Below the pieces are notes generated by a model. The model searched no databases and was not told where the DNA came from. It saw only the letters and a list, made by a program, of their open reading frames with translations. From IMG/VR virus record IMGVR_UViG_3300010970_000163: a stretch of 64,000 bases of DNA; one strand, written 5' to 3'. Positions 5,940-34,345 of this stretch are shown here, in pieces (positions within the stretch are counted from its first letter, which is position 1; each line of letters begins with the position of its first letter). Both the position numbers and the translations under genes were made by a program. This DNA is from an uncultured virus (IMG/VR IMGVR_UViG_3300010970_000163). Lineage: Duplodnaviria; Heunggongvirae; Uroviricota; Caudoviricetes.

Positions 5940-8900
5940 ATGGCTAGTACAAAAGATCTATACAACGATTTAAAGGGTAACCCACTTATTAAGATTAATG
6001 ACGATTACGAGACATTCAATCTAAAATTACAAGATGCGAATTACCTTAAAAAGTTAGAAAGTGCTTTAGCTTCTATTGGTGATGACATCAACGCCTACGA
6101 CATTCCTAAAAAAAAAAAGGATGGCGAGGTCGAATCATCTCAGCCTACAGAGCAGCCGTCAGCGACTACAGAGCCAACAGAGACGGCTGGTGTTAATGTA
6201 GATCCAGAGACAGGCCGTGAATTAGGTGCCGATGAGGCGTTTATCAAACAAGGTTATGAGGACCGTGGATCACATTGGTTCAATAAGACTACTGGTCAAA
6301 TTATATACAAGAAGAAGAAAGAGGTAAATCAGAAGCCTGAGATGCCTGTTACTGATTTACAGGCTCCTCCTGAAGCTCCTGAAATGCCTGAGACTCCAGA
6401 GCTTGTTGCTCCTGAGAAGCCTATTGAAGAGCAGGTATTAGAAACACAGGCAGCTCAAACTCCAAATACGGATGTTAACAACTTAGATAAAACTACTGTA
6501 GTAGGTAGTGTTATTTCTGAGCAAGAGCCAGATGCTAATAAAGCAAACAAGATTGTAACTGACGCTAACGCTGTTGCAGGAACTGCTCTCAAGAAGAAGA
6601 AGAGAGGCACAGATGCTAATAAAGCTATTATAACCTACTCTCCGAGTTCCGCAAGTGATATTGTATATGTGTCTGATGGAGACAAGGTTGTTTCTATGGA
6701 TAAGAGAAGTGATAAGTACTCAGATATTATTGCGACTAACCCATACACTGTTCAATTAAAAAACTCAGAGGCGTTTAAGGATCTCATTCAACTCCAAAAA
6801 GAAGGAAATAAACAAGGTTATCAAAACTATTTAGAGACGGCAGGAAATCCAGCTGCACAAGAAATTGCTGACCGTGCCTTCGGTGGTTTTACAAGTGAGC
6901 CTATAATGGAAACTACTATCATTAGTGGAAATAATCAAGATAGACCAACTCGCATCTCTAATAACCCGTTAAACAAATTAAAGCTAGATAACCTCTTCGG
7001 AGCTGCCGAGAACCTATGGAATAATATCATCAATAAAAATGTAGACAGACCTTGGCAAACAGAACAGGAGTATGATGCAGAGGATTTTATTACTAATGTT
7101 GATCCTAGTTTAAGTGAGGAAGAGAAGCAAGCACAACAACAGTTTGACGCTTCTATGTCTGAGGAAACCATGGTTCCAAAAGGTCCTAGACAATTATCTT
7201 TTCCTTCATATGTTCACACGAAAGAAGATAATGAAATCGTAACAGAACAAGAGCAGAAGCAAGAGGAGAAAAAGAGAAGAGCTACTATAGAATTTATTAC
7301 TACGAATCCAGAGACAGGAGAATTAGAGTTGGGTGATGTTAATGATTTAACAGAACTTGAAAGATATAATTTTTATAAAAATGGATCGAAAGTTTTCTTA
7401 CAGAAATGGGAAGAAGAGAAGGCGAAAGAAGTTAGATCTACAATGGAAAACGCTCAGGCTCTTGCAACGGGGAAGCCGGTGAAAATGTATAAAAGCGACT
7501 TTTTAAGTAATCCTGCAAATCAAGCTATTCATAATAAAATTAAAGATAGCAAGTTTGCTCCTAAAGAGGGAGGATCGGAATTAGAAATTTCTCTTGCTGA
7601 AATAAGCAATAAACAGGCTGATGCAGACTATAAAAATCTTCATCAGAACGGTTATAATAATGCGTACAGTACTGAGATAAGAACTCCATATGATATTCAA
7701 TCAGAGTTAGATAACATCGATAAGATTTTAGATGCTCAACCTAAGATGTCTTATGAAGAGAAGATGAAATTGTATAAGCAGAAGGAGAGCTTAAATCAGG
7801 CACTTCTAAATGTTTATGAGCAAAATATTAAAGACTACGCTACATATTTAAGAAATACAGGTCACGAAAAAGCAGCGGCTGATATGCTGTCTACTTATGA
7901 TTATTACAAGAGAAAGACTGGTGGTTTCCAAACGATGCCTGTAAAGGAATTAAGTGATGCCGACAAACGAGCTATCATGAATATCCGCAGTCAGGCTGTT
8001 AATACAACCATGCGTTATTTACAGACTAAGTATCAGACTCTCTCAAATAATGTTGACATAAATGCGTATCAGAAGTTATCTAAGAAACCATTAGAGCAAG
8101 TAGCTAAAGAATTTGAATTTCTTAAGTCTATCGGTGCTTTAGACGAGAATGGCAATATTAATCCATCTGCTAAGATTAAGCAGAGCGATCAAGTTAAGTT
8201 TAGTGATGCTATTCTTAAAATCAATTTAGCTAAAGATCAGATCGCAAGTGCAGCAGAGGCTACAGGAGCAACTCCAGAGAATATTAATGAATTAACTCGC
8301 CTTGGTCAGAAACTAGGTAATCTTCAGAATACAGAAACTTCATTCTATCAAAAGAATGCAATGGAGGATCTTAAAGAGGAGGATGAGAATGATAAAAGAA
8401 ACCAAAAGATAGCGGAAGATAGAATGAAGTCAGAGGACTTCTTTACGTCCTTCTTTTACACGGCATTATATGGAGGAACGAATTTATTTATCCCTGGTTT
8501 ATCAACTCTCATTAAGATTGGTAAAGTGCCTGATATCCTTGCTGATGCTTTAGGGGATGAGACTCAATTATTTGACCAATGGTCTGCATATATCGATGAG
8601 ATGATTAAGGATATGAATGCCTATCAACCTAAAGATATGACAGGTCTTTCTGGCACTCAAAAATTCTGGTTAAATACAACAGCAGGAATCAGTAATTTAG
8701 GAGCTTACGCTGTTTCAGGACTTGTAGGTGGACCTGCATTAACAACCCTAATTATGCTTTCGGATCAAACTGATGAAGCTAAAGCCAATGGATTGGATGA
8801 TGATGAGGCTGCGGCATGGGGTTTATTTACTTCAATGATTCTCGGAAGAATAAATCAATTAGTACCTGATTCTAAAAGCTTCTATGACGCTTTAAAACCT

Positions 8901-11900
8901 TCTACTAAAATTATATTGAAAGCATGGGCTAAAGGCAATTTAACTCGTCCCGAAGCAATGGGTATGTTAAGTAAAGCAATCCTTCCTAGTCTTGAAAAAC
9001 ACCTTAAGAGAACATTAGGAGAGACTGGAGAGGAAATGCTTGAAGAAATTGTCAATCAATTAGGAGGAATGGCTGGTAACTATGTATGGGATAACGCTTC
9101 ATTCAATAAAGATTTTGATCCTAACTCCATTATAGAAGCAGGTGAGAGTGCTGCTTCACTAACAACAGTTTTAGGAGTGTTTCAAAAAGGCGGCAAGAGA
9201 AGTGCAGTTGAACAGAATGTTTTATTAAGTTTTTCTCAAAATAAAAACTACATACTACGAAATGTATCTTCTAATTCTCAAGAAGAATTAAATGTATTAG
9301 ACAAACAATTAACAGAGCTTGAAGCTATGGAAGTTGGTTTACAGTCTATGCCGGGTTACACAGATTTGAGTAATGGAGAAAAAGCTGAAGTGCTATCTGA
9401 ATTATATAGAGCCGAAGCTATAGAGTTAGGTGCTAAGAACAGAGGTCTAGGTAAAAAAGATCCTGGATTTATTGAGGCAGAAAGAATCAGAGAAGAGGTA
9501 TTAAACTCTCTCAAAGCTCCTAAGAAAGGAGAGATACCAACACAACCAGAACTACAAAAACCAAAAACAAATGCCGTACAAGAGCCAAGCACAACAGAAG
9601 TTCTTCCAAGCCAACAAGGCGAAGTTAGAGAAACAGGGCGTAAACGTCAAGGAGTGGAACCAAGCGTCCAAGGGGAAGAAGTTGCCCAAGAAGGTGGGAA
9701 GAAAAAAGTAAATTCAACAGAAGAGTCTCAAGCCTATGTTGATAAATTAACTGAGGTTAAAAAGAACGATCCTGAAACTTACTGGTCAGTGAGTATCCCT
9801 GAGGTTGAGGATGTAGAAAACGGCACCATCATTACAAATGAAGATGGGCAGGCTGTTGTTGGAGAAGATGGTGATATTAAAGCTGTCTATAAGAACCCGG
9901 ATAGTGAGGCTAGACGTGTCTCTGACACTCTATTAAAAGAGGCTATTAAGGCAGGAGGTACTAAGTTAGATAACTTTGACATCTACCTCACTAAGCTATA
10001 TCTAGAAAACGGATTTAGAATTGTTTCTCGTCTTCCATTTAACGAGGAATTTGCTCCTGATGGATGGAATAAAAAGAAGCATGGTACTCCTGATGTAGTG
10101 GCCATGATCTACGATCCAGAGGGTAAGTTAGATATTGAGGAGAAGCAATTTACAAACGAGCAATACGATGAGGCAATAGCTTACCGTGATACTTATGTAG
10201 ACGCTCAAAAACAAGCTTATCCAAAGACTACTGAAACAGATACAGAAGCTAAAGCTCAAGAGGAAAGAAAGTCAACTGCTGATAAGATCAGAGGTCTAAA
10301 GAGTGAGGGTGGTAGAGCTTATAGTGCTGCTCTTGGTATTCCTATTGCCATTTGGGATGGTGCTGTTGAGCTTATTGCTACCTCTATAGAGGCTGGCGAG
10401 AGCTTTGTTAACGCAATAAACAAGGCAAAAGAATATCTTAAGCAACAATTGGGTGATGATTACAATGAAGATGTTGCTGAAGAGTTTATGGATGAGGTTA
10501 TTAACCAATCTCCTGTTCAATTAAACAATACAGATAAGGTTAAAGGAACTCCTGTAAAAGTAAATCCTGATGGTCATAACCTTTCTTTTGTAAAAGAAGA
10601 AGACTTGATTGATATCGATGCTTTAATTAAAGACATTGAGGCAAAAGGTGAAACCGTGTGGTTTTGGGTAGCCGATCAGTTAGGAAGAGGTTATTACATG
10701 GATTCGAAGACAGGAGAAAAGCATTATTTAGATGCAGGTCCTTCTTACGCTTTAGATCCTAAAAACAGAGAGAAGAATGTTATTTGGGCAAGTGGGGTTG
10801 AAGCAACAACATTAAACAAAAATATTGCCGCTGCAGATTATATATTTGTAATTAGCGGATCTGCCGATAAGAGTAAATTATTTAATAAGGCTGTTTTTCA
10901 AATTTTTCAAGATAAGATTGGTGATTACGACACATTTAAAAAAGAAGTGTTAGCGTCTAAAACAACCCAGGCAATTAAAGACGTGTTAGAAGCTCATGAT
11001 TCATGGGAAACTTTAATTGAAGATGCTTCAGTAGACAATCCAAAAACAGGAAAAGTAGGCACGGGTAGAAAGAAATTTTTAATTGAACTTGTTGAAGCTT
11101 ATAATAAACCTAATACTAATCTTCACAAAACATTAAAAGAAAGAAATGCTTTAATAAATGTTGATGAACTTAGAGATGGGTTTTACGCAGACAATAATTT
11201 TGATCAAAATGATATAATGCTTGTTTTAAAGCCTGAGAAATTAGGGGATAAATCAGAGCATTCAACATATGAAAATGATTTAATTGGTGAAGTTGTTGGG
11301 GTTCCTAATAAGAAGATAAACGCATATGATATTCTTCCTGATAATTTAAGAAAGGAAACGAATAAACAAAGAACAACGCAATCACAATCTATAGCTCCTT
11401 ATGGATCTGGAATACGAAACATTTCAGCATCTCAAAACATAGCACGTGGATTAAGAGAGGCTGCTGATTTAATTAGAAAAGGTAAGAGAGGCGGCCTTGC
11501 AATGAATCCTATTGATCCATTCTTAGAAGTTGTTGCTAAGGCTCTTGAGGCAGGTGCTTCTCTAACAGAGGCTATTGCAAAAGGTATAGAGGCATTCAAG
11601 AACTCTGACTTCTACAAGAACTTAACTGCTCAAGAGAAGAGTAAGGCTGTAAACGATCTTAAGAAGGCAATGGATGAGCAGATTGCTCCGACTATTGCTA
11701 ATCTTATCAACGAAGAAATGTTGAAGGGTAAGGGTGTTTACACAGCTTCACAAAATGTGAAGAAGGAGATGATTAAGGAAGGCGTAATTGACGAGGTAAC
11801 ATTTGATCGCATCGTTGGGAAGGCTGAAAAAATTGTTAAAGCACAGGCAGAACAGATGATAGTAGACGCTACAGATAAAGCTGTGGAGGACATTAGATCA

Positions 11901-14900
11901 GGTGCCGGTTTAGACAATGCGTTGAATGCTCTTTCTGACTTTATTAATAATGAAGTTGGTTTCTACAAATCTCAAGATAAGACTCTTAAGAAAGACTTGG
12001 CTGATAAGGCTAAGGCTAACGTGATGGATCAGTTGGCATCTAAGATAGCAGGCGATGCTAAGTCTTACATGGAGGTTGAGAACATGAGTAAGGCAGATGC
12101 TATTGAGAAAGCTTTGGGAGACGCTACATCCGCAGGTATGGAGTTCTCTACAGTAGATCAATTGCGTGAATCAGTTAAAAACTCTCTCGATAAAATCAAG
12201 TCTAAAGATGCCGCTGAGGCTAGAAAGAATGAGCCTGTGGTTACCACTACTGATAAGCAGATCATGAAGGATAAGCTTAAGGCTATGGACGCTGCTCTAA
12301 AAGAGGCAGTAGCTAAAGCAAAGCAAGATAAGAAGGATGAGAAAGAGATGCGTCAATTAGTTCGTAATTGGGTGAAGGAATATTTAAAAACCTCAGGTAT
12401 CTCGGCTAAGATTTCTCCTACTCAACTGAAGGCTATCGTTTCAAGGGCAAACGGACTTGTTGCTGACATGACGGACACGAAGATGAAGGCTCTAGTAGAT
12501 TACGTTGAGAAGGTGGTTGCTGATCAGGAGTACGCTCAAATGATTAACGATCTTGAAAAGAACAAGAAGGGAGCGAGTAAGAAAAGACACAACCAGTACA
12601 CGGAAGCGGTGAGAAGATATCTATCTCTTCCCCTCGTGAACTCAGATGGCACCCCTCTTATGAATGATCAGGAGTTAAAGGCGTATGCTGAATCTGTTGC
12701 TCGTTTAAATCAAAGCGTTCCTGACCATAGTCGTATGGACATGGTTCTTGCTACTCGTGTGTTAAACGATTACAATGACATTCCTTCTAAGTTAGAGAAG
12801 TCTGATTTTGATGATGCTGTTACTGATATTAAGAACTCTACTATTAGTGATTTAACTGAGTACAATGAATTTGTAAAGAAGGTTAATAAGGCGAAGAGAA
12901 TACTCGACTCTCTCTACAACAACGGTAAAGTTACAGAGGATGAGTACAACGATGCTTTAAATGAATTGTATACCAAGGAGAACGGTCTAAGAGTTTATGA
13001 GGCAGATCATAACGATCAAATTGACTTACTTAAATATGATTTGATTAAGGATATTTTAGATATATCTGACTATGTAGACAAGTCAGGTTTTATCGGTCAG
13101 CAAGCAGAAGTTTACAAGAGATTAGAGGTGATGTTAAAGACAACACCAAGTATGATTAGAAGTCTCGATGTTAAAGATCTCGTTAAGTTGACAGAGGTGA
13201 TGGATCGTATGGCTGATGGTTTTGTAGCTGAGAAAGAATTGCGTGAGATCGTAAACAAAGCTGAGACGAGAGGTCAGAAGAAAGGGGAGAGCATTGTTAA
13301 TCAATTAGCTTCTATCTACAAGTCTTTAAACACTCCTGACTTGACTAAGTTGAGAAACTTACTTAAACTAACGGAGCCTGCTCAAATAGAACGTGTCCTT
13401 GGACTTGCCTCAGGACCTATATACAATAATATTATTCAACCAATCAACTCGGCATTTACTAAAATGCGTAAGAACACAGAGAGATTGATGGATGACTATT
13501 ACAAGGCTCGTCAAGAGAATAAATTTAAGGGGGATGTTGTTGTTAAGAGATCTGAGTATGATAAAGGAATCGGATCTAAGTTAAGCGGTAATATTACAGT
13601 TAAGGCTGATAAGTATTACAGTACTCGTGTTGCCATGTTGTCTAGCATCTTCGACTACGCTAGCAAGGCTATGGATCAGAAGGCAGATACAAAAGACTTC
13701 TGGGGCGAGAACTTAGAGAAGGCTGATGTTAAAAAGGCTTACCACAACGATGGTTCTCTCCACATTGTTAATGACATTTATTCTAAATTAAATAACGATC
13801 CTCGCTTCCAAACGAATGGCAAATTAGATTACACTAAGATCTACGAAGCATTTGTTCAGGATCCTAAATCTGTAATGACAGAGTCTGAATATAAGTTATA
13901 CGAGGCTACTCAAAAAATAAATAAAACAGAAATTGGAGAGGCTTTAGTAAGTGCCAATGCTATCCGTGGTATCAATGGAGAGATCAGTGCCGTACACTAC
14001 CCAAGAAAGTCTCTCGGAAAATCTTCTGCGGAAGATGCTGACTTAGTTGCAGGAACTGGAGGAAAGGTTGGAGGTCTTCGTGCAGGATCTTCATACGCTC
14101 GTGTGCTTGAGACTCCTAAAGATGCTATCGATTTAAATCTTGACAGAGTAATGGCAACTCAGATCTATGAAGCCTCTCGTGATTTATATTTAAACGATGC
14201 CATTCAACAGACAAATGAGGTATTCAGAAACGCTAAGGAGAATGCTAACCCTGACGAGAAGGCTATATTACAAGCTATTCAAGACTGGAATAGAAAGCGT
14301 GTAGACTTTGAATTAGAAAAATCTGCTAAGAATGTTGTTACTCGTTTATTTGCAGGTTTTGCTCCTTACGCTTTAATAGGTAAGGTAAGAACTCCTACCG
14401 AGTTTACAACCAACCTATTGGCAGGTATATTCAACCAAATTAGTAATGTTGCTAAGATAGGACCTAGAGCTTTAGTAAGTCCTATTAATCCTCTTCAAAC
14501 ACAGGAGGCTAAGAAGATAATGGAGAAATTTGATAGCCCCGTTCAGTTTATGAGTTGGAGTATGAAGACATATGCAACATACGGCAAGGGGAAGGTGGAT
14601 AAAAATTACCTATCTTCTTTCTACAACAATGCTGTTAATGTGTTAATGAATATCTCCGGTCCTCTAACAGTTGGAGAATGGAAGGCAGACTTTGACGCTA
14701 AATTCCAAGAGTTAACAGGAGAGAGGTACAACGAAGCCAAACACTTTGATAATGATGAATATTTCTACGCTATGCAGAAAGCATCATCATATGCAAACCA
14801 ACAAATTGAAAGAATTAAAGGTGGCGCATTCAAAGGTCAAGGAAAACAATTCGTTGCCACTAATCCTATAACAGATATCAAGAAGATATTCCCTGGTGTA

Positions 14901-16382
14901 AAGATTAAGGATGAAGAGGGTATGGTAAGTGCCAATGACACCTTTGCTCAAATGACCAATATGTTCAACAACTTTGTTGGGCGTGATGTTAAAAACTTTG
15001 TTTCTGGAGGAAAGCAAGCGGCTACACTTAAAGATGTTACAGGTGGATTTAAAGATATGTTAGGTTCCACTTACCGATTAGGATCGTACTACGTAATATA
15101 CAATCTTATTGACGCTGTAATGAAATCTGCTCTTGGAGATGACGAAGAAAAGAAAATGGGTGATAAGAAGGTAGAGATGTTTACTACTCCTGAAGGGCAA
15201 TGGGAAACTGCATTTAATACGGTATTAAACCTAGCTACAACAGTGGCTACTTCTAAATACGGGGCTAATGGACGTGCTATTGCTGTAGCTGCTTTAAATA
15301 CTTTATATAATTCTACAGATAATCCAGATCAAAAAGAAAGAGCTGCTGCCGCTTTAAAGTCTATGTACTTCCAAGATCCTATTGATACTGAGAAATTTGG
15401 AGCTGCCGAGAAAATTATTTATACTACGGCAACGATGTACATTCCTCCTGCTGATGTCATTGCTGATCAATTACAGAGAGAGTTTGAAAGATTAGCAGGA
15501 AGCGATAAATATAAGGGAGCTACTATTACAGATTTCTTTGATCAGGCAGGTAAGTTTGTTAATGATCCTGAAGTTGTAGAATTTAATAAATTCCTAGCCG
15601 GTTCATTAACATTAGCTACTCAGCTTGCTGTTTTGTCAGGTAAACCTATTCCGTTCTTAAAGGATATAGTGAAACTTGTTAAGAAAGATGTTCAAGACAA
15701 GCAGAACATAATTATCTTAAATAAGAATGGAGAGAACATGGTTGAAGGGGTACTTGATTTTGACATTGATGGAAATGGATTGGTTTCTGTAACTGTTGAT
15801 ATTCCTGGAATGCCTGCTGATCAGAAGAAAATTATTAATGAATCTCTCTCCAATGTGGCTAGTGATAAATTTAACAAACTGATTGAGAAAAACAAGGAGC
15901 GTATAGATAAAATGCCTGAGGGTAATATTGAACAAGAGGCTGAAAAGTTTGCGCAAATTCAGTATTACGCAGATTTAGCTAAACATCAGGCTAAAGTAGA
16001 AGCTAAACTTGCTAAACCAGAAGATGCTCCGAAAGAACCTACTTTATCAAGTGACTATTTTGAAAACAAAGAGGCGAAAGAGAAGATGGTAAAACAATAC
16101 CAAGAGGCAAGAGCTAAACGTAAATTCTCCTCTGCATCTAAACTGTCAACAACAAGAGATATTCAAGAGGGTATACAACAATTGATCGATAATAGTGAGT
16201 ATAAAGATGTTTACAACTCTCTTAATCCTAATAAAGTTGAGAATATTGGAGCGATAAAAGCGATGAATGCCTACTTCAACGATCTCTACCAATACAATGT
16301 AACACCTGTAATGGGGAAAGAACCAAAGGCAAAGGATTATTTTTATAAAGATTCTAACGGAAAAATAACTCCTGTTGAATAA
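5940..16382 (+). CDS. Giant (3480 aa) polyvalent internal virion/ejection protein with a GNAT-like domain
   Basis: Mostly helical. GNAT-like segment at about 9720-10220 (GDIKAVYKNP...AIKAGGTKLDNFDIYLTKLYLENGFRIVSRLPFNEEFAPDGW). Last gene of the ejection cassette. Confidence 0.65.
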   Translation: MASTKDLYNDLKGNPLIKINDDYETFNLKLQDANYLKKLESALASIGDDINAYDIPKKKKDGEVESSQPTEQPSATTEPTETAGVNVDPETGRELGADEAFIKQGYEDRGSHWFNKTTGQIIYKKKKEVNQKPEMPVTDLQAPPEAPEMPETPELVAPEKPIEEQVLETQAAQTPNTDVNNLDKTTVVGSVISEQEPDANKANKIVTDANAVAGTALKKKKRGTDANKAIITYSPSSASDIVYVSDGDKVVSMDKRSDKYSDIIATNPYTVQLKNSEAFKDLIQLQKEGNKQGYQNYLETAGNPAAQEIADRAFGGFTSEPIMETTIISGNNQDRPTRISNNPLNKLKLDNLFGAAENLWNNIINKNVDRPWQTEQEYDAEDFITNVDPSLSEEEKQAQQQFDASMSEETMVPKGPRQLSFPSYVHTKEDNEIVTEQEQKQEEKKRRATIEFITTNPETGELELGDVNDLTELERYNFYKNGSKVFLQKWEEEKAKEVRSTMENAQALATGKPVKMYKSDFLSNPANQAIHNKIKDSKFAPKEGGSELEISLAEISNKQADADYKNLHQNGYNNAYSTEIRTPYDIQSELDNIDKILDAQPKMSYEEKMKLYKQKESLNQALLNVYEQNIKDYATYLRNTGHEKAAADMLSTYDYYKRKTGGFQTMPVKELSDADKRAIMNIRSQAVNTTMRYLQTKYQTLSNNVDINAYQKLSKKPLEQVAKEFEFLKSIGALDENGNINPSAKIKQSDQVKFSDAILKINLAKDQIASAAEATGATPENINELTRLGQKLGNLQNTETSFYQKNAMEDLKEEDENDKRNQKIAEDRMKSEDFFTSFFYTALYGGTNLFIPGLSTLIKIGKVPDILADALGDETQLFDQWSAYIDEMIKDMNAYQPKDMTGLSGTQKFWLNTTAGISNLGAYAVSGLVGGPALTTLIMLSDQTDEAKANGLDDDEAAAWGLFTSMILGRINQLVPDSKSFYDALKPSTKIILKAWAKGNLTRPEAMGMLSKAILPSLEKHLKRTLGETGEEMLEEIVNQLGGMAGNYVWDNASFNKDFDPNSIIEAGESAASLTTVLGVFQKGGKRSAVEQNVLLSFSQNKNYILRNVSSNSQEELNVLDKQLTELEAMEVGLQSMPGYTDLSNGEKAEVLSELYRAEAIELGAKNRGLGKKDPGFIEAERIREEVLNSLKAPKKGEIPTQPELQKPKTNAVQEPSTTEVLPSQQGEVRETGRKRQGVEPSVQGEEVAQEGGKKKVNSTEESQAYVDKLTEVKKNDPETYWSVSIPEVEDVENGTIITNEDGQAVVGEDGDIKAVYKNPDSEARRVSDTLLKEAIKAGGTKLDNFDIYLTKLYLENGFRIVSRLPFNEEFAPDGWNKKKHGTPDVVAMIYDPEGKLDIEEKQFTNEQYDEAIAYRDTYVDAQKQAYPKTTETDTEAKAQEERKSTADKIRGLKSEGGRAYSAALGIPIAIWDGAVELIATSIEAGESFVNAINKAKEYLKQQLGDDYNEDVAEEFMDEVINQSPVQLNNTDKVKGTPVKVNPDGHNLSFVKEEDLIDIDALIKDIEAKGETVWFWVADQLGRGYYMDSKTGEKHYLDAGPSYALDPKNREKNVIWASGVEATTLNKNIAAADYIFVISGSADKSKLFNKAVFQIFQDKIGDYDTFKKEVLASKTTQAIKDVLEAHDSWETLIEDASVDNPKTGKVGTGRKKFLIELVEAYNKPNTNLHKTLKERNALINVDELRDGFYADNNFDQNDIMLVLKPEKLGDKSEHSTYENDLIGEVVGVPNKKINAYDILPDNLRKETNKQRTTQSQSIAPYGSGIRNISASQNIARGLREAADLIRKGKRGGLAMNPIDPFLEVVAKALEAGASLTEAIAKGIEAFKNSDFYKNLTAQEKSKAVNDLKKAMDEQIAPTIANLINEEMLKGKGVYTASQNVKKEMIKEGVIDEVTFDRIVGKAEKIVKAQAEQMIVDATDKAVEDIRSGAGLDNALNALSDFINNEVGFYKSQDKTLKKDLADKAKANVMDQLASKIAGDAKSYMEVENMSKADAIEKALGDATSAGMEFSTVDQLRESVKNSLDKIKSKDAAEARKNEPVVTTTDKQIMKDKLKAMDAALKEAVAKAKQDKKDEKEMRQLVRNWVKEYLKTSGISAKISPTQLKAIVSRANGLVADMTDTKMKALVDYVEKVVADQEYAQMINDLEKNKKGASKKRHNQYTEAVRRYLSLPLVNSDGTPLMNDQELKAYAESVARLNQSVPDHSRMDMVLATRVLNDYNDIPSKLEKSDFDDAVTDIKNSTISDLTEYNEFVKKVNKAKRILDSLYNNGKVTEDEYNDALNELYTKENGLRVYEADHNDQIDLLKYDLIKDILDISDYVDKSGFIGQQAEVYKRLEVMLKTTPSMIRSLDVKDLVKLTEVMDRMADGFVAEKELREIVNKAETRGQKKGESIVNQLASIYKSLNTPDLTKLRNLLKLTEPAQIERVLGLASGPIYNNIIQPINSAFTKMRKNTERLMDDYYKARQENKFKGDVVVKRSEYDKGIGSKLSGNITVKADKYYSTRVAMLSSIFDYASKAMDQKADTKDFWGENLEKADVKKAYHNDGSLHIVNDIYSKLNNDPRFQTNGKLDYTKIYEAFVQDPKSVMTESEYKLYEATQKINKTEIGEALVSANAIRGINGEISAVHYPRKSLGKSSAEDADLVAGTGGKVGGLRAGSSYARVLETPKDAIDLNLDRVMATQIYEASRDLYLNDAIQQTNEVFRNAKENANPDEKAILQAIQDWNRKRVDFELEKSAKNVVTRLFAGFAPYALIGKVRTPTEFTTNLLAGIFNQISNVAKIGPRALVSPINPLQTQEAKKIMEKFDSPVQFMSWSMKTYATYGKGKVDKNYLSSFYNNAVNVLMNISGPLTVGEWKADFDAKFQELTGERYNEAKHFDNDEYFYAMQKASSYANQQIERIKGGAFKGQGKQFVATNPITDIKKIFPGVKIKDEEGMVSANDTFAQMTNMFNNFVGRDVKNFVSGGKQAATLKDVTGGFKDMLGSTYRLGSYYVIYNLIDAVMKSALGDDEEKKMGDKKVEMFTTPEGQWETAFNTVLNLATTVATSKYGANGRAIAVAALNTLYNSTDNPDQKERAAAALKSMYFQDPIDTEKFGAAEKIIYTTATMYIPPADVIADQLQREFERLAGSDKYKGATITDFFDQAGKFVNDPEVVEFNKFLAGSLTLATQLAVLSGKPIPFLKDIVKLVKKDVQDKQNIIILNKNGENMVEGVLDFDIDGNGLVSVTVDIPGMPADQKKIINESLSNVASDKFNKLIEKNKERIDKMPEGNIEQEAEKFAQIQYYADLAKHQAKVEAKLAKPEDAPKEPTLSSDYFENKEAKEKMVKQYQEARAKRKFSSASKLSTTRDIQEGIQQLIDNSEYKDVYNSLNPNKVENIGAIKAMNAYFNDLYQYNVTPVMGKEPKAKDYFYKDSNGKITPVE

Positions 16383-16397
16383 AAAAAGTGTAAATTT

Positions 16398-16904
16398 GTG
16401 ACTATGAAAAAACCAGTAAAATTATCTTCAGAGATTGTAAACTTACTCCTCCCTCGTTTGAAGGATGAGTTTACAGCTGCTTACTTTTATCGTTCTGCAT
16501 CTAACTGGTGTAATAATGTAGGATTTTTCAAGGCAGGTACTTTCTTTGCCAAGGAATCTGAGGACGAGTTTGGTCACGCTAAGGAGATTGAAAACTTCTT
16601 AGTTAATTGGAATGTAACTCCAGAGTTGCCGACAATTGCAAAGCCTACTTTAACTTTCTCTAATCTATCTGATGTAATCTCTCAAGCCTATGAAATGGAG
16701 TATGCTCTATACGAAGCGTATGAAGAGACGAGTGTGAAGATTTTTAAGACAGAGGATCTCTGCGTGTTTGACTTCCTTCAAGGATACAGAACTAAACAGA
16801 CTAAAGCTGTTGCTGAATATAGCGATATGATTAATATCCTAGAAGGCATCAACTTGGGAAGCAAGTTTGAAATGTTAATGTTAGAAGAAAACTTATTTGG
16901 ATAA
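16398..16904 (+). CDS. Ferritin (FtnA-like)
   Basis: Four-helix ferritin pattern: DEFTAAYFY...W...G...FF.KES.DEFGHA, plus EMEYALYEAY. Probable start is the ATG at 16404, after a TAAATTTG box at 16391-16398. Confidence 0.8.
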   Translation: MTMKKPVKLSSEIVNLLLPRLKDEFTAAYFYRSASNWCNNVGFFKAGTFFAKESEDEFGHAKEIENFLVNWNVTPELPTIAKPTLTFSNLSDVISQAYEMEYALYEAYEETSVKIFKTEDLCVFDFLQGYRTKQTKAVAEYSDMINILEGINLGSKFEMLMLEENLFG

Positions 16905-25324: not shown

Positions 25325-25628
25325 GTTTGTAAGTTTTAATGATTTGTACAACGTCATGATACGAGAACCATGGTAGAGTGGCGATCTCCTGAACCAATTC
25401 CTCGGCATCCTCTAAAGCCTTGAGGTAAAAACCTCCACCCTCTATATCAAAGAGGGCAGTGGCTAACACCTTGTACTTTTGTTCAGCAGCCTTGATAAAT
25501 TGATTACCCTTCATCTTAACCTCCTTCTCCCAAAAGGGAGGGCCTATGTGGTCAGAGATATTAATAAAGGCATTGGCATGGATAACAGATGCAATGATCT
25601 GGTGTTTCTTGTGATCGTCTAAAATCAT
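25263..25628 (-). CDS. Hypothetical protein
   Basis: 121-aa ORF coupled to the exonuclease gene. Confidence 0.6.
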   Translation of the reverse strand: MILDDHKKHQIIASVIHANAFINISDHIGPPFWEKEVKMKGNQFIKAAEQKYKVLATALFDIEGGGFYLKALEDAEELVQEIATLPWFSYHDVVQIIKTYKHEQALQQAKAIKEELDNKDK

Positions 25629-26314
25629 CTATTTGTAAGTATTTCTATTAAGTGTTTCTTATAAGCTACTGCCTTCTCAAGAACGGTATCAATAACTTCC
25701 TTTGTGTTGCTCTGCAAATGTACGGGAATTATTGCCATCTTGTTCTTACCATCCATGCGAGGATCGTAAGATATGAACATACCTTCTTCCTTACCGGCTA
25801 CTAGCATATTCATTTGTAGTTGCCACCAGTATGCCTTTCTCTCCTTGAGCAATTCAGCCTCGTCCTTTATGAGTAGGTTCTGAACGTGGTTCTCAAAGTT
25901 GTAGGGACATTTGATCTCGATCACACCGAAGCGTGAGCATAGGCCGTCCGGTGATCCACCTGCGTGGTCTCCATAAGGAATAAAGCCTGTTGAATCCACG
26001 GTAGACTCCATAAGTTCAGCGTATAGGTTACAGGCCTCAGCCTCGTGGTCCAATCCCCAGTCTGTAGCGGCAGAGTTAGTAGTCTGCTCAACTCCGGCCA
26101 TCTCCTCGGCAACCTTAGACATGACGTAAGACTTAGCTGTCTCAGACATCTCTCCCTTCTCACGGGCCTCCTTTGATTGAGGGTTTGTTAGTAGCTTGTA
26201 GATCTCAGATGAGGTAAACTTACCCACACGAGCGTTGAACCAAGCCTGTGACCGCTGATCTGCGGCCATAGCTTGTTCCTTTAAAATTTCGTTCAGTAGA
26301 TTATTCACTATCAC
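25625..26314 (-). CDS. YqaJ/lambda-type recombination exonuclease
   Basis: QRSQAWFNARVGKFTSS, WGLDHEAEA, GGSPDGL, IEIKCP and YWWQLQ motifs. Confidence 0.92.
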   Translation of the reverse strand: MIVNNLLNEILKEQAMAADQRSQAWFNARVGKFTSSEIYKLLTNPQSKEAREKGEMSETAKSYVMSKVAEEMAGVEQTTNSAATDWGLDHEAEACNLYAELMESTVDSTGFIPYGDHAGGSPDGLCSRFGVIEIKCPYNFENHVQNLLIKDEAELLKERKAYWWQLQMNMLVAGKEEGMFISYDPRMDGKNKMAIIPVHLQSNTKEVIDTVLEKAVAYKKHLIEILTNR

Positions 26315-27170
26315 CTCCTTTCTTGTTCTTAGCCTTAGCCTTCTCGATAATCTCTTTCTTCTGCTCAGGATCGATCATAACTGACTCGTCAGATAGTGCC
26401 GCCTCAAGTTCCACGACATTAGTAGTCTTCTCAAGTAGACGTTCAATCTGCTCCTCGCTCATCTTAACGTACTCGACAGTCTTGTACTCCTCGTTATCGA
26501 TAGAGATAGCAGTGTTAACCTTCTCAATCTTATCTAAAGCGAAAGATGATTTAGGTATAGACTTCCAGCCTCTCTTCACAACAGTCTTACGAGCCATCTC
26601 ACCGTAGTCAGAAGACCATGGGCCAATATCCTTACGGCCTGTCTCTGAACGATTCTTAATGGCATCAATCTGAGGTTTCCACATGATCTCGAATAGCTTC
26701 TCGTCATTGTGTAGTACGAAGATTGCGTACACAGCTATCACATCGCTGTCCTTAAAGGTCTCCCCCTTAGGTCTGTGAATAATCTCAGGGTTTGTCCCCT
26801 GAACAAACTCGAAGTCATCCCCTCGGTAAACTACCGAAGATGAGACAGACTTGATAATCCCCGTGTCAGAGATAAGTTTAATCATCCCCTGATATCCCGG
26901 CATTAGCTTCGCGTTGCCCTTGAAAGGAACTAGGTAAGCCAAGTTCATCACAGGGTTCAACGATAACTTTGTTAAGGCACAGTTGAAGACTGCCATGGCC
27001 ACAGATTGTGGGTTTGAATTTGCTAGAACAGAGTTGTTGTTAGCAGCTTGGATGGCGAAAGACATCTCTCTCATGAGGACTTCTTCTCCTCCCATCAGTT
27101 TAATCATTTCCTCTCTGCGAGGTTCGATGAACGGCATTACCGTCTTTGGTGAAATTGTTATGTTTGACAT
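26301..27170 (-). CDS. recT: RecT-family single-strand annealing protein
   Basis: LSLNPVMNLAYLVPF...GYQGMIKL and PW..DY.EMARKTV motifs. Confidence 0.92.
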   Translation of the reverse strand: MSNITISPKTVMPFIEPRREEMIKLMGGEEVLMREMSFAIQAANNNSVLANSNPQSVAMAVFNCALTKLSLNPVMNLAYLVPFKGNAKLMPGYQGMIKLISDTGIIKSVSSSVVYRGDDFEFVQGTNPEIIHRPKGETFKDSDVIAVYAIFVLHNDEKLFEIMWKPQIDAIKNRSETGRKDIGPWSSDYGEMARKTVVKRGWKSIPKSSFALDKIEKVNTAISIDNEEYKTVEYVKMSEEQIERLLEKTTNVVELEAALSDESVMIDPEQKKEIIEKAKAKNKKGGDSE

Positions 27171-30100: not shown

Positions 30101-31638
30101 ATGAAATTTTAGGGGTTGTTTTAGATTTATTCTTAAAGTAATGTACTGCTTCATCTAGACTACTGAAGTACTGCTGGTCTGAGTGGTTGTAAAGTTTATT
30201 TCCATTGCTCAGGTATAGCTCTTTGCTCTCCTCGTCCCACACCGACTCGACAATTGTATCATGTTCAATGGTGTAGTAAGTGTCTCCCTCGGTAAAAGGG
30301 TAGCTCCAATCAGAGTCATGTAATTGAGCCAGAAAAACAATGGTCTTTACTGCCTCTAGCGTATCTGAATCTTCAAACACCTCACTCTCCATCAAGTCAT
30401 TTCGTACCTGAATGGAAAGTGTATTGATTACTTTGAAGATATCTTCCTGTGTTACTTGTTGTGTGTTCATGTGTTTATTGTTTTTTTTTAGTTTATACTT
30501 TCTTTGTATCCTACGCTAATTCCAATGTCAAGTCCTTGCTCCAGAGCCTCGGTTAATTGCCCGTGAGATTCAATCAGGGACTCTGAGTCATCGTCATATA
30601 AAGCGAATAATTCAAATAATCCTGATGTGTAAATTTCCTTTGCCTTGCCCGTTACTAACAAGTAAACGAACCCGTCTTTCATTGTCTTTGTTGTCTTGTT
30701 TTTCATATGTTTATTAGTTGTTAAATGTTTCTTCCGCTAACTCTGTTACCTCTCCCTCAGGAGAAATAAACCCTGCGTCTATCATGGCCGAAGCTACTCG
30801 TCCATAGTGTCCCTGAAGACTCCAAGCCATTTTAGTTTTTACTAGGTCGGCAAAGAAGTTAATTGTCTCAGCCTCGTTCAGCTCCCCTGATTCGTAGGCC
30901 ATTAGTGTGTTAATGTTCATGTGTGTGTATTTATTAGTTAAGTTTCTCAATTGTCAGTACGTCCATCATTTTTCGGTACATAAGTTTCGTGTAGTTCATA
31001 ACGTGTACCTCGTTATTGAAGTTCACCTCACTCACTACCACTCTCCCGTAGATTTGAACTCGTAGTTCTACTTTAGCCCTGCAGGGAAAGGTTATTGCTC
31101 CCTTTAACATCGGCAATTTCATGTTGTGATAAGTTGTTTTCATTTTACGTTTATTGAATTAAGTACATTTTTGAACCCCTTGTACACGGCCTGCTTGTAG
31201 GCCTTACTATCATGGCCTAGAACACTCGACATCATTAGGCTAGTCATCGAGGCGTAACGGAAAACAATTTCCTTGTACACATGTTCGAATGTCTCCCCGT
31301 TTCGAAGGGCTGTGTACAATTCCTCCTCCGAATTTATCACGGGGTTAGTGAAGGACTCTTCCTGATTCGCTCTCATGTGTGCATCAGCGATTTGTTTCTG
31401 AAGTTTAGTAATACGTTCCATGTGTGATTTATTTATTTGGTTATTAGTACTCGCAGTGAATGATTTCGATTTCCATTTTAAACGTATTCCCTAGAGACCA
31501 CGCATACATTTTATCATTTGTTATTTTCAGTGAATTGTGTCTCGCATGTGATAAGAGAATACTGATTGCTCTTGCTTCACTCTGAAAAACTGATGAATTT
31601 GTTAATTCACGATTGGTGTAGAAATTTACTTTGTACAT
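27190..31638 (-). other. Cluster of about 18 small co-oriented hypothetical early genes
   Basis: Tightly packed minus-strand ORFs of 40-135 aa with A/C-rich leaders, including 27190-27378, 27420-27707, 27688-27927, 27899-28225, 28476-28754, 28751-29158, 29664-29891, 29896-30096, 30093-30470, 30488-30706, 30714-30950, 30934-31143, 31140-31421 and 31444-31638. Confidence 0.75.
28416..28452 (-). terminator. Intrinsic terminator
   Basis: Minus strand GGGAGTAGGC-ttaatt-GCCTATTCCC followed by a T run, downstream of 28476-28754. Confidence 0.7.
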
Positions 31639-31651
31639 GTTTATAAATATT

Positions 31652-31729
31652 GGTTAAGAGCGAACCCCGTAGGGCCTGAGCATGCACTCGTTTAATCGCT
31701 TTCGTCCACTCAGGACTCATCAGTTAACC
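31652..31729 (-). ncRNA. Type I hammerhead ribozyme (HH-B)
   Basis: GGUUAA-CUGAUGA-GUCC ugagu GGAC-GAAA-GCGA...UCGC-UC-UUAACC: complete core with three stems and a CUC cleavage triplet. Confidence 0.9.
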
Positions 31730-32070
31730 TAGAACTCTATGAAGTACTCTGCATCAAAGGTGTATTGCTCTCCTTTGAACTCAGGGTTATACACTAGCGT
31801 TCCCTCCTCGTTGAACTTCATCCCTATGCACTCTTGTGTGAACTTCATGCACATGGCACCCACTAAAATTCTAGCACTCTCCGAGTCCATGGCGGTGATA
31901 ATTTTAGCGACCAAGGTCGGTTCAGGATTAGTAATGTACTCTCCAAGGTCTTCTCGTGTAGCGACTATCTCACCCTCGAAGGCGTGTACCAAGGCACGAG
32001 TAATTAGTTCGAAAGAGTAAGGGTTATTGTTTAACCCGATGTTCAGTTGAAATACGTTCATGTTTTCCAT
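31729..32070 (-). CDS. Putative S-adenosylmethionine lyase (SAMase), anti-restriction protein
   Basis: GEY...EPTLV...MCMKFTQECI...GTLVY matches in order the T3 SAMase pattern as I recall it (GCY...EKTV...AC...EQDCV...AGLVY). Early-region location fits. Confidence 0.65.
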   Translation of the reverse strand: MENMNVFQLNIGLNNNPYSFELITRALVHAFEGEIVATREDLGEYITNPEPTLVAKIITAMDSESARILVGAMCMKFTQECIGMKFNEEGTLVYNPEFKGEQYTFDAEYFIEF

Positions 32071-32086
32071 GTGTTTATTGTTTATT

Positions 32087-32140
32087 AGTTAAGACACGGG
32101 CGAACCCGTGTTTCGTCTCTCTAAGACTCATCAGTTAACC
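32087..32140 (-). ncRNA. Type I hammerhead ribozyme (HH-A)
   Basis: GGUUAA-CUGAUGA-GUCU uagag AGAC-GAAA-CACGGG uucg CCCGUG-UC-UUAACU: canonical GUC cleavage site and a UUCG tetraloop. Confidence 0.93.
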
Positions 32141-32145
32141 TTTAT

Positions 32146-33002
32146 CTACTGAACTCTTACCTCCCATCCATAGCCTCGGTACTTAGCCGCCCATATATGT
32201 AGCTCCTCGGCAGGAATGTACTCCGCTGTTGGTGAAGCGTCGCCAATAGCTTTCTTCCAAAAGATATCCTGCCCGTTGCGTATATCGAAGGTGAATATCA
32301 TAACCTCTCTCGGTTCTTCGTACACCTCGTCCATGTAATCCTGTAGGACGTTGAACATCCTTTGTCTCTCCGCGTCATCCGAGTAAGCGTACTCGATAAA
32401 GTCTCTGATTTGGTCATCCGCATTTTGCTTGTTCATAGTTTCTAGTTGTTTATTGTTTATTGATTATTTGTTTGTTTGTTTTTAGTTAACTCTCTCCCAC
32501 TCACCAAGGCAGTGAAGGTAAAAATACTCCCGAAGATAACCCCGAACATTGCAAGGGGTGTAAGGGTAAGCACAAGAGATAAGGCAATAGCCACGAGGCT
32601 AAGTTCTAAGATAGTTTTCATGTGTTTTTATTTTTTTATAGTTAGTGTACGTTTAACGTGTGATAGCCCTTGAAACATTAAGAACCTCTTAGTTATTTGC
32701 AAGGCATCAGCTCGGTCTGTTGCATTAATAGTCGTGCTATCTATCTCCTCTCCCCCCTTAGTGAATAGGGTTAAAATCCATTGTTTTGTTTCCATGATTT
32801 TTGAATTATTTGGTTATACTTTTTTAGATTCGATTAGGTTGAAATAGTCCATGTATAGTATGTGAAATATCTCGTTAGCCTCTTCGGTGTAATATTTTCC
32901 GTCCTCCTCCCAAATTACTATTTTATCCGTATACACTCTCTCAAGGTGTAAGGAAGCTAATTCAGAGGCAAGGTCTTGTGCGTTGATTGTTCTAGTAAAC
33001 AT
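32146..33002 (-). other. First early genes (32146-32436, two short ORFs at about 32456-32620 and 32627-32795, and 32814-33002)
   Basis: Co-oriented small ORFs downstream of the promoter at 33398-33430. Confidence 0.65.
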
Positions 33003-33025
33003 AATTGTGTGTATTTATTGGTTAG

Positions 33026-33086
33026 CGAAACGTAGGGACTCGAACCCTACAACCTCTCTCACGAGCAGGTCTCTCCAAGCGTTTCA
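33026..33086 (-). ncRNA. tRNA-like element (acceptor plus T arm, no anticodon arm)
   Basis: UGAAAC/GUUUCG stem stacked on GUAGGG-UUCGAGU-CCCUAC (6+6 bp), a GG-containing D-like loop and a GNRA hairpin. Confidence 0.65.
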
Positions 33087-33098
33087 GTGTTTCCGATA

Positions 33099-33109
33099 TG
33101 TCAAAGAAC
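33099..33109 (-). promoter_or_regulatory. boxA-like antitermination site
   Basis: GTTCTTTGACA resembles rrn boxA (GCTCTTTAACA) and lies at the end of the early leader. Confidence 0.6.
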
Positions 33110-33110
33110 T

Positions 33111-33392
33111 ACAGGCTTTATACGCTTTCCTGTTATGCGTCTCAGTCTCTCTAAGATACCACCCTTGCTCAGTTAGGCTCTTAGCTATAGTGTAGGTGAC
33201 TGATAAACTCTACCTTGACGTGTTTTCTCGGATGCGTCTTTTCCCCGTGTCGTTAGGCATACTTGCTGTATTACTTACTAGCTTTTCTCTACACACTCAG
33301 TTCTGATATCGCATCAGTACATGTGGTGAATACTTCGTGTATGTGACTCCTAAACGTTATTTCAATTTGTCAGTATCAATTCCGTTGAATGA
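33111..33392 (-). ncRNA. Putative structured leader ncRNA
   Basis: About 280 nt with no ORF after a promoter. Helix CGUUUAGG..CAUAC/GUAUG-CCUAACG, hairpin CUGAU-gcgau-AUCAG, and motifs shared with 40583-40797. Confidence 0.45.
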
Positions 33393-33397
33393 TGGAG

Positions 33398-33430
33398 CAA
33401 ACCTACAACCGTTCTAAATGTTATTCCAAA
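33398..33430 (-). promoter_or_regulatory. Major early promoter (Bacteroidota -33/-7)
   Basis: TTTG-N21-TAGGTTTG on the minus strand. Confidence 0.8.
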
Positions 33431-34345
33431 TATATTTTAAACTATTTTCAAAATACGTTCTGAAACCCGCATTTTATGCACCCACTTTTTTCATTTTTGC
33501 TCTACAGCCCAATAGATTCAATACCTCATTTTGAAAAAACCAATGAATACAAGGCCTGCAGAAGCAGTAAAGAAACATATAAAATGGCAAAAAATACGCA
33601 TGAAAATAGAAACGTAGCAATAGCAAGGGTTTGAGGTGTAGTATGATTAAAAATGTGAGGATTGGCAGGACTTATAGAAGCTCACGAAATGCGTTGTGAA
33701 AAGGTTTTATTGTGCCTGATTTTAGAAAAAGCTTCAACTGGTGAGCGTGTTTTTTGATAGGTCGGAGTATTTCATGTGGTAATATGTGGTATTTATTATG
33801 CCGATAATGATACACGAAACGTATTAGGTTTTGAGGTTTAGTTCAGGGGTTATTTCATGGCAAAATATGTATTGAAATGTGCCGATAATTGAGAGTGAAA
33901 TGTGGGTGAATTTGCGGTGGTATTTCGCACCTGATTGGAGGGGTTATTTCGAGGGTTATTTTGTGCCGTGTTCGAATGTTAATTCATGGCATGAGTGAGA
34001 GGTTATGTTTTGGGGTTCATTGAGGTGCTATAGAGAGACGTTCACGGGCTGTATAATATCTAGGCATGAGAGAGAGTAATACACCACGTTTGCGGGCTTG
34101 TATCGAGGTCATGCTTTGCCGAGGTGAGAGGCTTGGGATCCCACTATTGACGCGGTGTGTAGCGATTTGTTATGCCGAGAGGTTGAGGCTTGGCTTGGGC
34201 TGTTTCTCAGTGTTGACGCGGTGTTCAGAGCTTTGGGGCTTGACTTTTGGGGTTGCTTTGGCCTAGGCCGGGGTGGGTTCGTAAACACGCATTTCCTGTG
34301 GCCGAGGGGGGTGGCCTAGCGTGGGGGAAACCCCCTTCCCTAAAC
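33431..34345. other. Long non-coding region, putative genome terminus/packaging site or origin
   Basis: About 900 nt without a credible ORF, G/T-skewed on the + strand, with short direct repeats and a GC-rich end. Confidence 0.45.

Follow-up and report, generated by a model that had tools for sequence, protein, structure and literature searches.

The window analysed here, a stretch of 64,000 nt from an uncultured virus, resembles most of a phage genome, with genes for a capsid-like protein, a primase-helicase, RecT and YqaJ. Within a run of small minus-strand genes, two sequences with the build of type I hammerhead ribozymes, hereafter HH-A and HH-B, enclose a single gene for a 113-aa protein (Table 1). 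The UAG stop of this gene shares a nucleotide with HH-B, namely the first G of its stem I. The 64-aa ORF located beyond HH-B had no homologue in 10 related loci. Elsewhere in the window, a 3480-aa ORF without a Pfam match (5940-16382, plus strand) lies next to a ferritin-like gene (16404-16904, plus strand). At 34030-34330, where gene orientation switches, the sequence is richer in GC and contains a direct repeat of 31 nt (34139, 34205); this is possibly an origin or packaging region.

Table 1. Features at and around the ribozyme-flanked gene, with positions in the window.
Feature	Position	Strand	Remark
YqaJ exonuclease and RecT annealing protein	25625..27170	-	would shuffle cassettes at short homologies
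64-aa ORF downstream of HH-B	31444..31638	-	no family found
HH-B, type I hammerhead with three-way-junction stem III	31652..31729	-	predicted cut after CUC at 31658
435-nt RNA expected from both cuts	31658..32092	-	between cuts A and B
Branched stem III insert of HH-B	31660..31699	-	UUAAA joining strand and two hairpins
113-aa SAM-lyase-like ORF	31729..32070	-	fold match and residues; probable anti-restriction enzyme
A-rich 22-nt leader left by cut A	32071..32092	-	starts with stem I 3' strand UUAACU
HH-A, type I hammerhead	32087..32140	-	predicted cut after GUC at 32093
96-aa ORF upstream of HH-A	32146..32436	-	no family found
tRNA-like element	33025..33086	-	T arm and one other arm beside a 7-bp acceptor stem; no paired D arm

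In both ribozyme copies the type I core (CUGANGA...GAAA...UH) is present, stem I being the open stem and the other two closed. Along HH-A, GGUUAA (32140-32135) is followed by CUGAUGA, stem II (GUCU/AGAC), GAAA and a stem III of 8 bp capped by a UUCG loop, and UUAACU comes after the GUC cut site. HH-B consists of GGUUAA (31729-31724), CUGAUGA, stem II (GUCC/GGAC), GAAA and a branched stem III; UUAACC lies 3' of its CUC cut site, and the next ATG is 19 nt downstream of the predicted cut. Local folding gave a complete three-stem hammerhead for each, and the native stem I of HH-B paired with a probability of about 0.9 in its local context. The branched stem III insert is common to four related loci (L003, L007, L122 and L144). 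In its three-way junction, the joining strand UUAAA is conserved and the turn reads UCAG or ACAG.

The motif is not a product of chance. A 16-nt segment common to HH-A and HH-B occurs exactly twice in the window without mismatch, and with up to three mismatches it gave 5 matches against 0.61 expected, a number reached in none of 100 shuffles. The type I scanner returned no match in 1.27 Mb of shuffled loci. Neither copy reached an Rfam gathering score: HH-A scored 17.2 of 34 and 26.4 of 56.3 bits (RF00163 and RF03152, respectively), with weak matches to RAGATH-1-hammerhead (E 0.26) and Hammerhead_1 (E 2.8), and HH-B was not listed. A motif and structure search found only these two hammerheads within the 64-kb window, and around the 435-nt unit a repeat scan recovered only a 31-nt ribozyme repeat. 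Given the intact consensus, self-cleavage is predicted at both sites. A sequence-only reading had described the resulting 435-nt fragment, with UUAACU at its 5' end and UUCGCUC at its 3' end, as delimited by two hammerheads, and our coordinates and folding agree with this description. The fragment consists of the 22-nt leader, the 113-aa ORF and the 5' part of HH-B, the conserved ORF alone occupying 342 of the 435 nt.

Searched alone, the 113-aa sequence had no Pfam or PHROG match at an E-value of 0.001, no usable Atlas match and, with a narrow alignment, no PDB match. A profile built from 124 sequences ranked the T3 SAMase first in the PDB, weakly (E 0.32), in an alignment that matched E and Q. 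The structure model of the protein (pLDDT 94.6) placed the phage SAM lyase Svi3-3 (6zm9) at rank 1 both in Foldseek (E 1.9e-4) and in a wide fold search (Z 10.7, next 8.5), with an rmsd of 2.5 A over 98 residues. Residues G43, Y45, E50, T52, Q79 and E80 match the Svi3-3 site. By motif order, Gly56, Tyr58, Glu69, Gln104 and Glu105 of Svi3-3, site residues named in the available text of PMC7877911, correspond to G43, Y45, E50, Q79 and E80; E50, T52 and Q79 are at least 90% conserved in the 124 homologues. With Svi3-3 and the T3 SAMase (7ock, 8bb1), the 113-aa protein has in common a ferredoxin-like fold and the order of the G-x-Y, E-x-T/S and Q-E residues, at 13-18% identity. Judging from the model, the protein is thus probably SAM-lyase-like, with a predicted activity as a SAM-destroying anti-restriction enzyme. 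Distant homologues (31-42% identity) occur near hammerheads of the same family at eight loci in other phages, these loci having been picked by the ribozyme pattern. A SAM-lyase-like domain was also seen within six proteins of 1800-2800 aa, which are possibly phage polyvalent proteins.

To place the locus among its relatives, we assembled the hammerhead family by scanning viral contigs twice for the pattern and by searching twice for related loci. At least 294 unique hammerheads share one build, and the native stem I is fully paired in 289 of those listed. The first scan fixed part of stem I; in the set that was not selected on stem I, it is fully paired in 160 of 165 members among the matches listed, with many compensated variants. 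The scanner recognises only copies whose stem II has 3 bp or more, and at least one copy (in L087) escaped it. Family arrays hold 2 to 9 copies, and several same-strand copies flank single or few variable genes in the window and in related loci, as in the clustered hammerheads known from phages. Among the matches listed, 195 of 284 unique members have an ATG 16-28 nt after the predicted cut, the other 89 being outside this range, and 15 of 48 ribozymes with at least 3 kb on either side have no neighbour within 3 kb. That the spacing to the start codon after the cut is fixed suggests that the new 5' end has a role. Across the 10 related loci, the hammerheads are mosaic and the gene content changes. 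The family consensus includes a UNANU loop II and, among the matches listed, an A at -7 (160/165) and an A at +6 (149/165) flanking the end of stem I; in sequence terms, this suggests a tertiary contact typical of the family. Five loci carry arrays of 5-9 hammerheads in 2-5 kb, one of which (L027) has five different stem I sequences within a single array.

Family members were found in Flavobacterium, Mucilaginibacter, Daejeonella, Pedobacter and Chryseolinea genomes, among 46 stretches that included many other groups. Because of these occurrences and of the A-rich leaders, the host of the phage is probably a member of the Bacteroidota. Six of the family loci come from cultured Bacteroidota (Flavobacterium granuli, Mucilaginibacter, Daejeonella rubra and Paraflavitalea). 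No cultured relative of the phage was found, and the nearest virus record, a 12.6-kb fragment (G001), is without a hammerhead motif.

The early cluster is preceded by a tRNA-like element, and 22 nt separate the 3' end of this element from the first gene. In the window and in eight related loci (L001, L003, L004, L006, L136, L142, L143 and L144), the element ends 21-23 nt before an ATG. Five of its 20 pairs show covariation in the nine sequences, and compensatory changes were observed in all three helices; the element was missed by ARAGORN and stayed under the Rfam thresholds. We consider it a probable second kind of processing site. Cutting at the 3' end of such an element by tRNA processing enzymes would give the same leader by other chemistry. 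Similar T-arm elements precede leaders in four further loci. Further upstream, a non-coding stretch of about 300 nt (33100-33440, minus strand) is conserved in L006 and L136 (84-91%) and contains two TAnnTTTG sites (33434 and 33405), which we take to be the Bacteroidota promoter motif. Among the 22 early genes that lack a ribozyme, 7 have leaders beginning with TAA(A)CYA; the corresponding count was 1 of 29 for plus-strand genes and 1.0 for shuffles, in which 7 was never reached (0/5000). These leader motifs could be remnants of lost ribozymes rather than a translation signal.

The sequence-only reading had gone further, proposing that the excised piece closes into a circle. Its ends can indeed pair, as had been claimed: UUAACU matches GGUUAA of HH-B at all six positions, one of them a G-U pair, so that a hybrid stem I is possible. 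The hybrid stem is worth -3.4 kcal/mol, versus -5.6 for the native one. When the whole fragment was folded, the hybrid stem had a pairing probability of 0.003-0.016, a value of no weight because the native HH-B stem was equally low in the same long context (0.001-0.002). The 435-nt piece folds like its shuffles (z -0.17), and 48 related fragments had a median z of -1.0, with 6 of 48 below -3 (12 shuffles each). If a circle closed, it would rebuild an intact self-cleaving site. Pfam searches of 70 of the 74 called ORFs of the window found no RtcB, RNA ligase or reverse transcriptase; RtcB was found in none of 35 phage records and reverse transcriptase in none of 36. As a control, the RtcB search gave a match in the Bacteroides thetaiotaomicron genome, which makes a host ligase plausible. 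Type I retrozyme monomers ligate themselves in vitro to 1-3%, and to 30-80% with RtcB, according to the available text of PMC7229834; it is therefore quite possible that circles form in small amounts. Rolling-circle translation was considered as well and rejected: 435 is a multiple of 3, yet stops occur in all three frames. Nor are multiples of 3 over-represented in the unit lengths (28/109, among the matches listed).

Other contigs with the same gene provide a comparison. Ten distinct contigs, each counted once, carry homologues of the cargo gene with at least 55% identity. A perfect hybrid stem is available in four of them, with the matched one-gene layout of the window in L004 and L005 and with two genes enclosed in L006 and L007. 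The remaining 6/10 have incompatible stems or a single ribozyme around the gene: an A-A mismatch occupies the second pair from the cut in L001, L002, L003 and L083, the upstream ribozyme of the gene was not found in L050, and the complete genome L144 (G019) has an upstream hammerhead and none downstream. In L144, a branched stem III stands directly before the cargo-gene leader, which is the order expected at a circle junction; such an order arises by DNA recombination as well.

We then compared stem I between neighbouring ribozymes in both directions. In the set not selected on stem I, a complete hybrid stem I can form in 32 of 55 adjacent pairs in the forward (circle-making) direction and in 31 of 55 in the reverse direction, among the matches listed, pairs from one array not being independent in these counts. 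The first scan, biased on stem I, gave 53 forward and 49 reverse of 71 pairs among the matches listed. In arrays of at least three copies, the hybrid stem was complete in 52/79 forward, 47/79 reverse and 132/226 non-neighbour pairs; counted per array, forward exceeded reverse in 7, reverse exceeded forward in 7 and 42 were tied (both among the matches listed). Similar forward and reverse compatibility is expected from shuffling at the DNA level. Random family members would give a complete hybrid in 4.1 of the 55 adjacent pairs, against the 32 seen among the matches listed. Within genomes, cross-pairing was likewise complete for stem I in 32 of 44 pairs (0.17 for random members), for stem II in 13 of 44 and for stem III in 18 of 44, among the matches listed, and the excess identity of neighbours was 0.67, 0.24 and 0.51, respectively, the interval for stem III being an overlapping one. 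Something keeps stem I interchangeable within a genome. Beyond the 6-bp hybrid, 1.95 of 9 further positions pair, against 2.46 in random combinations.

Taken together, these data are best explained, with a probability of about 0.7, if the hammerheads are independent processing sites that yield linear single-gene mRNAs, in cassettes that are shuffled by DNA recombination. HH-A and HH-B would each cut a long early phage transcript about 20 nt before the next start codon. Every cut would remove upstream structure and leave the downstream gene with a short, standard A-rich leader that begins with a 5'-OH. Ends of this kind resist 5'-monophosphate-dependent nucleases. Both cuts together would release a linear mRNA for the SAM-lyase-like protein, with the hairpins of HH-B remaining at its 3' end. 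The tRNA-like element and the hammerheads alike would thus make a standard 5' end. At the DNA level, ribozyme copies may recombine through RecT/YqaJ at short homologies in the core and leader, and for a recombinant ribozyme to work, every 5' strand would have to be compatible with every 3' strand. Stem I would then be alike within a genome because the copies recombine as DNA and because its 3' strand doubles as the common start of early leaders.

An alternative is that the excised piece is closed, by the hybrid hammerhead or by a host RtcB, into a stable circular mRNA, and that this is the function of the tandem layout. The chemistry behind this idea is sound, and this part of the earlier proposal stands: the ends would be a 5'-OH and a 2',3'-cyclic phosphate, they pair at 6/6 positions, and type I retrozyme monomers close in vitro and are RtcB substrates, as far as the available text of PMC7229834 goes. 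The circle-junction order of L144 and a stem I that is more cross-compatible within genomes than stems II and III would also fit. The circle as the purpose of the layout does not follow, since there is no forward bias, four of the ten contigs have the A-A mismatch and two more only one recognised ribozyme, pairing does not extend past 6 bp, the fragment is not self-paired, and the phage records examined hold neither RtcB nor reverse transcriptase. Moreover, circles were looked for in such clusters by Perreault et al. (2011) and not detected (data not shown in that report; available text of PMC3088659). We therefore regard the functional circle as unlikely. It is similarly improbable that the cross-compatible hammerheads form an RNA-level cut-and-join system, producing translated circular mRNAs or new gene orders, with stem I sharing selected for joining. 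RNA-level hybrids would also explain why stem I is shared, which recombination explains by inference only.

Circles or spliced products could instead be minor by-products without function, or the cuts could mainly trigger decay of the upstream piece or tune the amounts of neighbouring messages. Self-ligation of 1-3% and the any-to-any compatibility of the stems would allow low-level joining, and ribozyme-triggered decay is known for glmS, according to the available part of PMC6765202. We nevertheless give these options only a slim chance, because it is the start codon after the cut to which the spacing is fixed. Spread of the cassettes as retro-mobile elements, i.e., true prokaryotic retrozymes copied from reverse-transcribed circles, would account for a ribozyme-gene-ribozyme layout with changing gene content; it is very improbable, given that similarity between an array's own segments appeared in 2 of the 57 arrays listed, both times as short patches and never as head-to-tail repeats, that reverse transcriptase was absent from the records searched for it, and that stems II and III travel now with the upstream gene and now with the downstream gene. 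Judged qualitatively, breakpoints scatter within the ribozyme and do not coincide with the cut site. Linear mRNAs from recombining cassettes are the reading that we retain.

The role of clustered phage ribozymes has been open since 2011 (in the available text of PMC3088659), and a 2019 review still calls the role of bacterial hammerheads "largely elusive" in the portion available (PMC6765202). The present locus offers a compact test case, with two canonical ribozymes, an assayable cargo, natural variants whose partners are matched, mismatched or missing, and an equally spaced tRNA-like element. Linear pieces would support the existence of natural "insulators" for swappable anti-defence genes, and an accumulation of circles would mean a genome-encoded circular mRNA of a DNA phage. 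In the literature searched, which covered few subscription papers, we found no description of natural circular mRNAs that derive from hammerhead clusters of phages.

Among known systems, the retrozymes were the model that the sequence-only reading had in mind. In the metazoan non-LTR retrozymes (Cervera and de la Pena 2020, available text of PMC7229834), tandem type I hammerheads lie a few hundred bases apart and leave 5'-OH and cyclic phosphate ends, as they are predicted to do here, where the tandem hammerheads likewise delimit a monomer with ligatable ends. The comparison fails on coding content, tandem repetition and self-pairing. Retrozymes are non-coding, occur in many head-to-tail copies and are highly self-paired, and their circles have been demonstrated (available text of PMC7229834 and PMC7761336), whereas the 435-nt piece is coding, present in single copy and no more structured than its shuffles, and neighbouring units are unrelated. 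Closer in proposed function are the type I hammerheads located just before an ORF in the UTRs of the fungal chryso- and fusariviruses, which are linked to shorter messages and translation, not to circles, in the available text of PMC13725137; these belong to eukaryotic RNA viruses and have other helix II lengths. RiboJ, an engineered hammerhead leader that raises protein levels 2-10-fold in E. coli (available text of PMC6206723), is a self-cleaving ribozyme that standardises the 5' leader, as proposed here, and being synthetic it is a functional analogy only.

The nearest counterparts are the clustered prophage hammerheads of Perreault et al. (2011), so that the ribozyme-flanked gene layout as such has been known since 2011. 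In the available text of that report (PMC3088659), several same-strand hammerheads flank single variable genes or short blocks, in one case the anti-restriction gene ardA, and cleave in vitro and in E. coli. The authors proposed the processing of single-gene mRNAs and also considered circular and spliced products, neither of which was detected (data not shown). Members of the present family may already be among the entries of Dataset S1 of PMC3088659. Unlike in those clusters, all copies here are of type I, with a fixed 6-bp stem I and a 4-bp stem II with a UNANU loop, and they are further distinguished by the distance of about 22 nt to the start codon, their scores below the Rfam thresholds, the branched stem III of HH-B and the SAM-lyase-like cargo.
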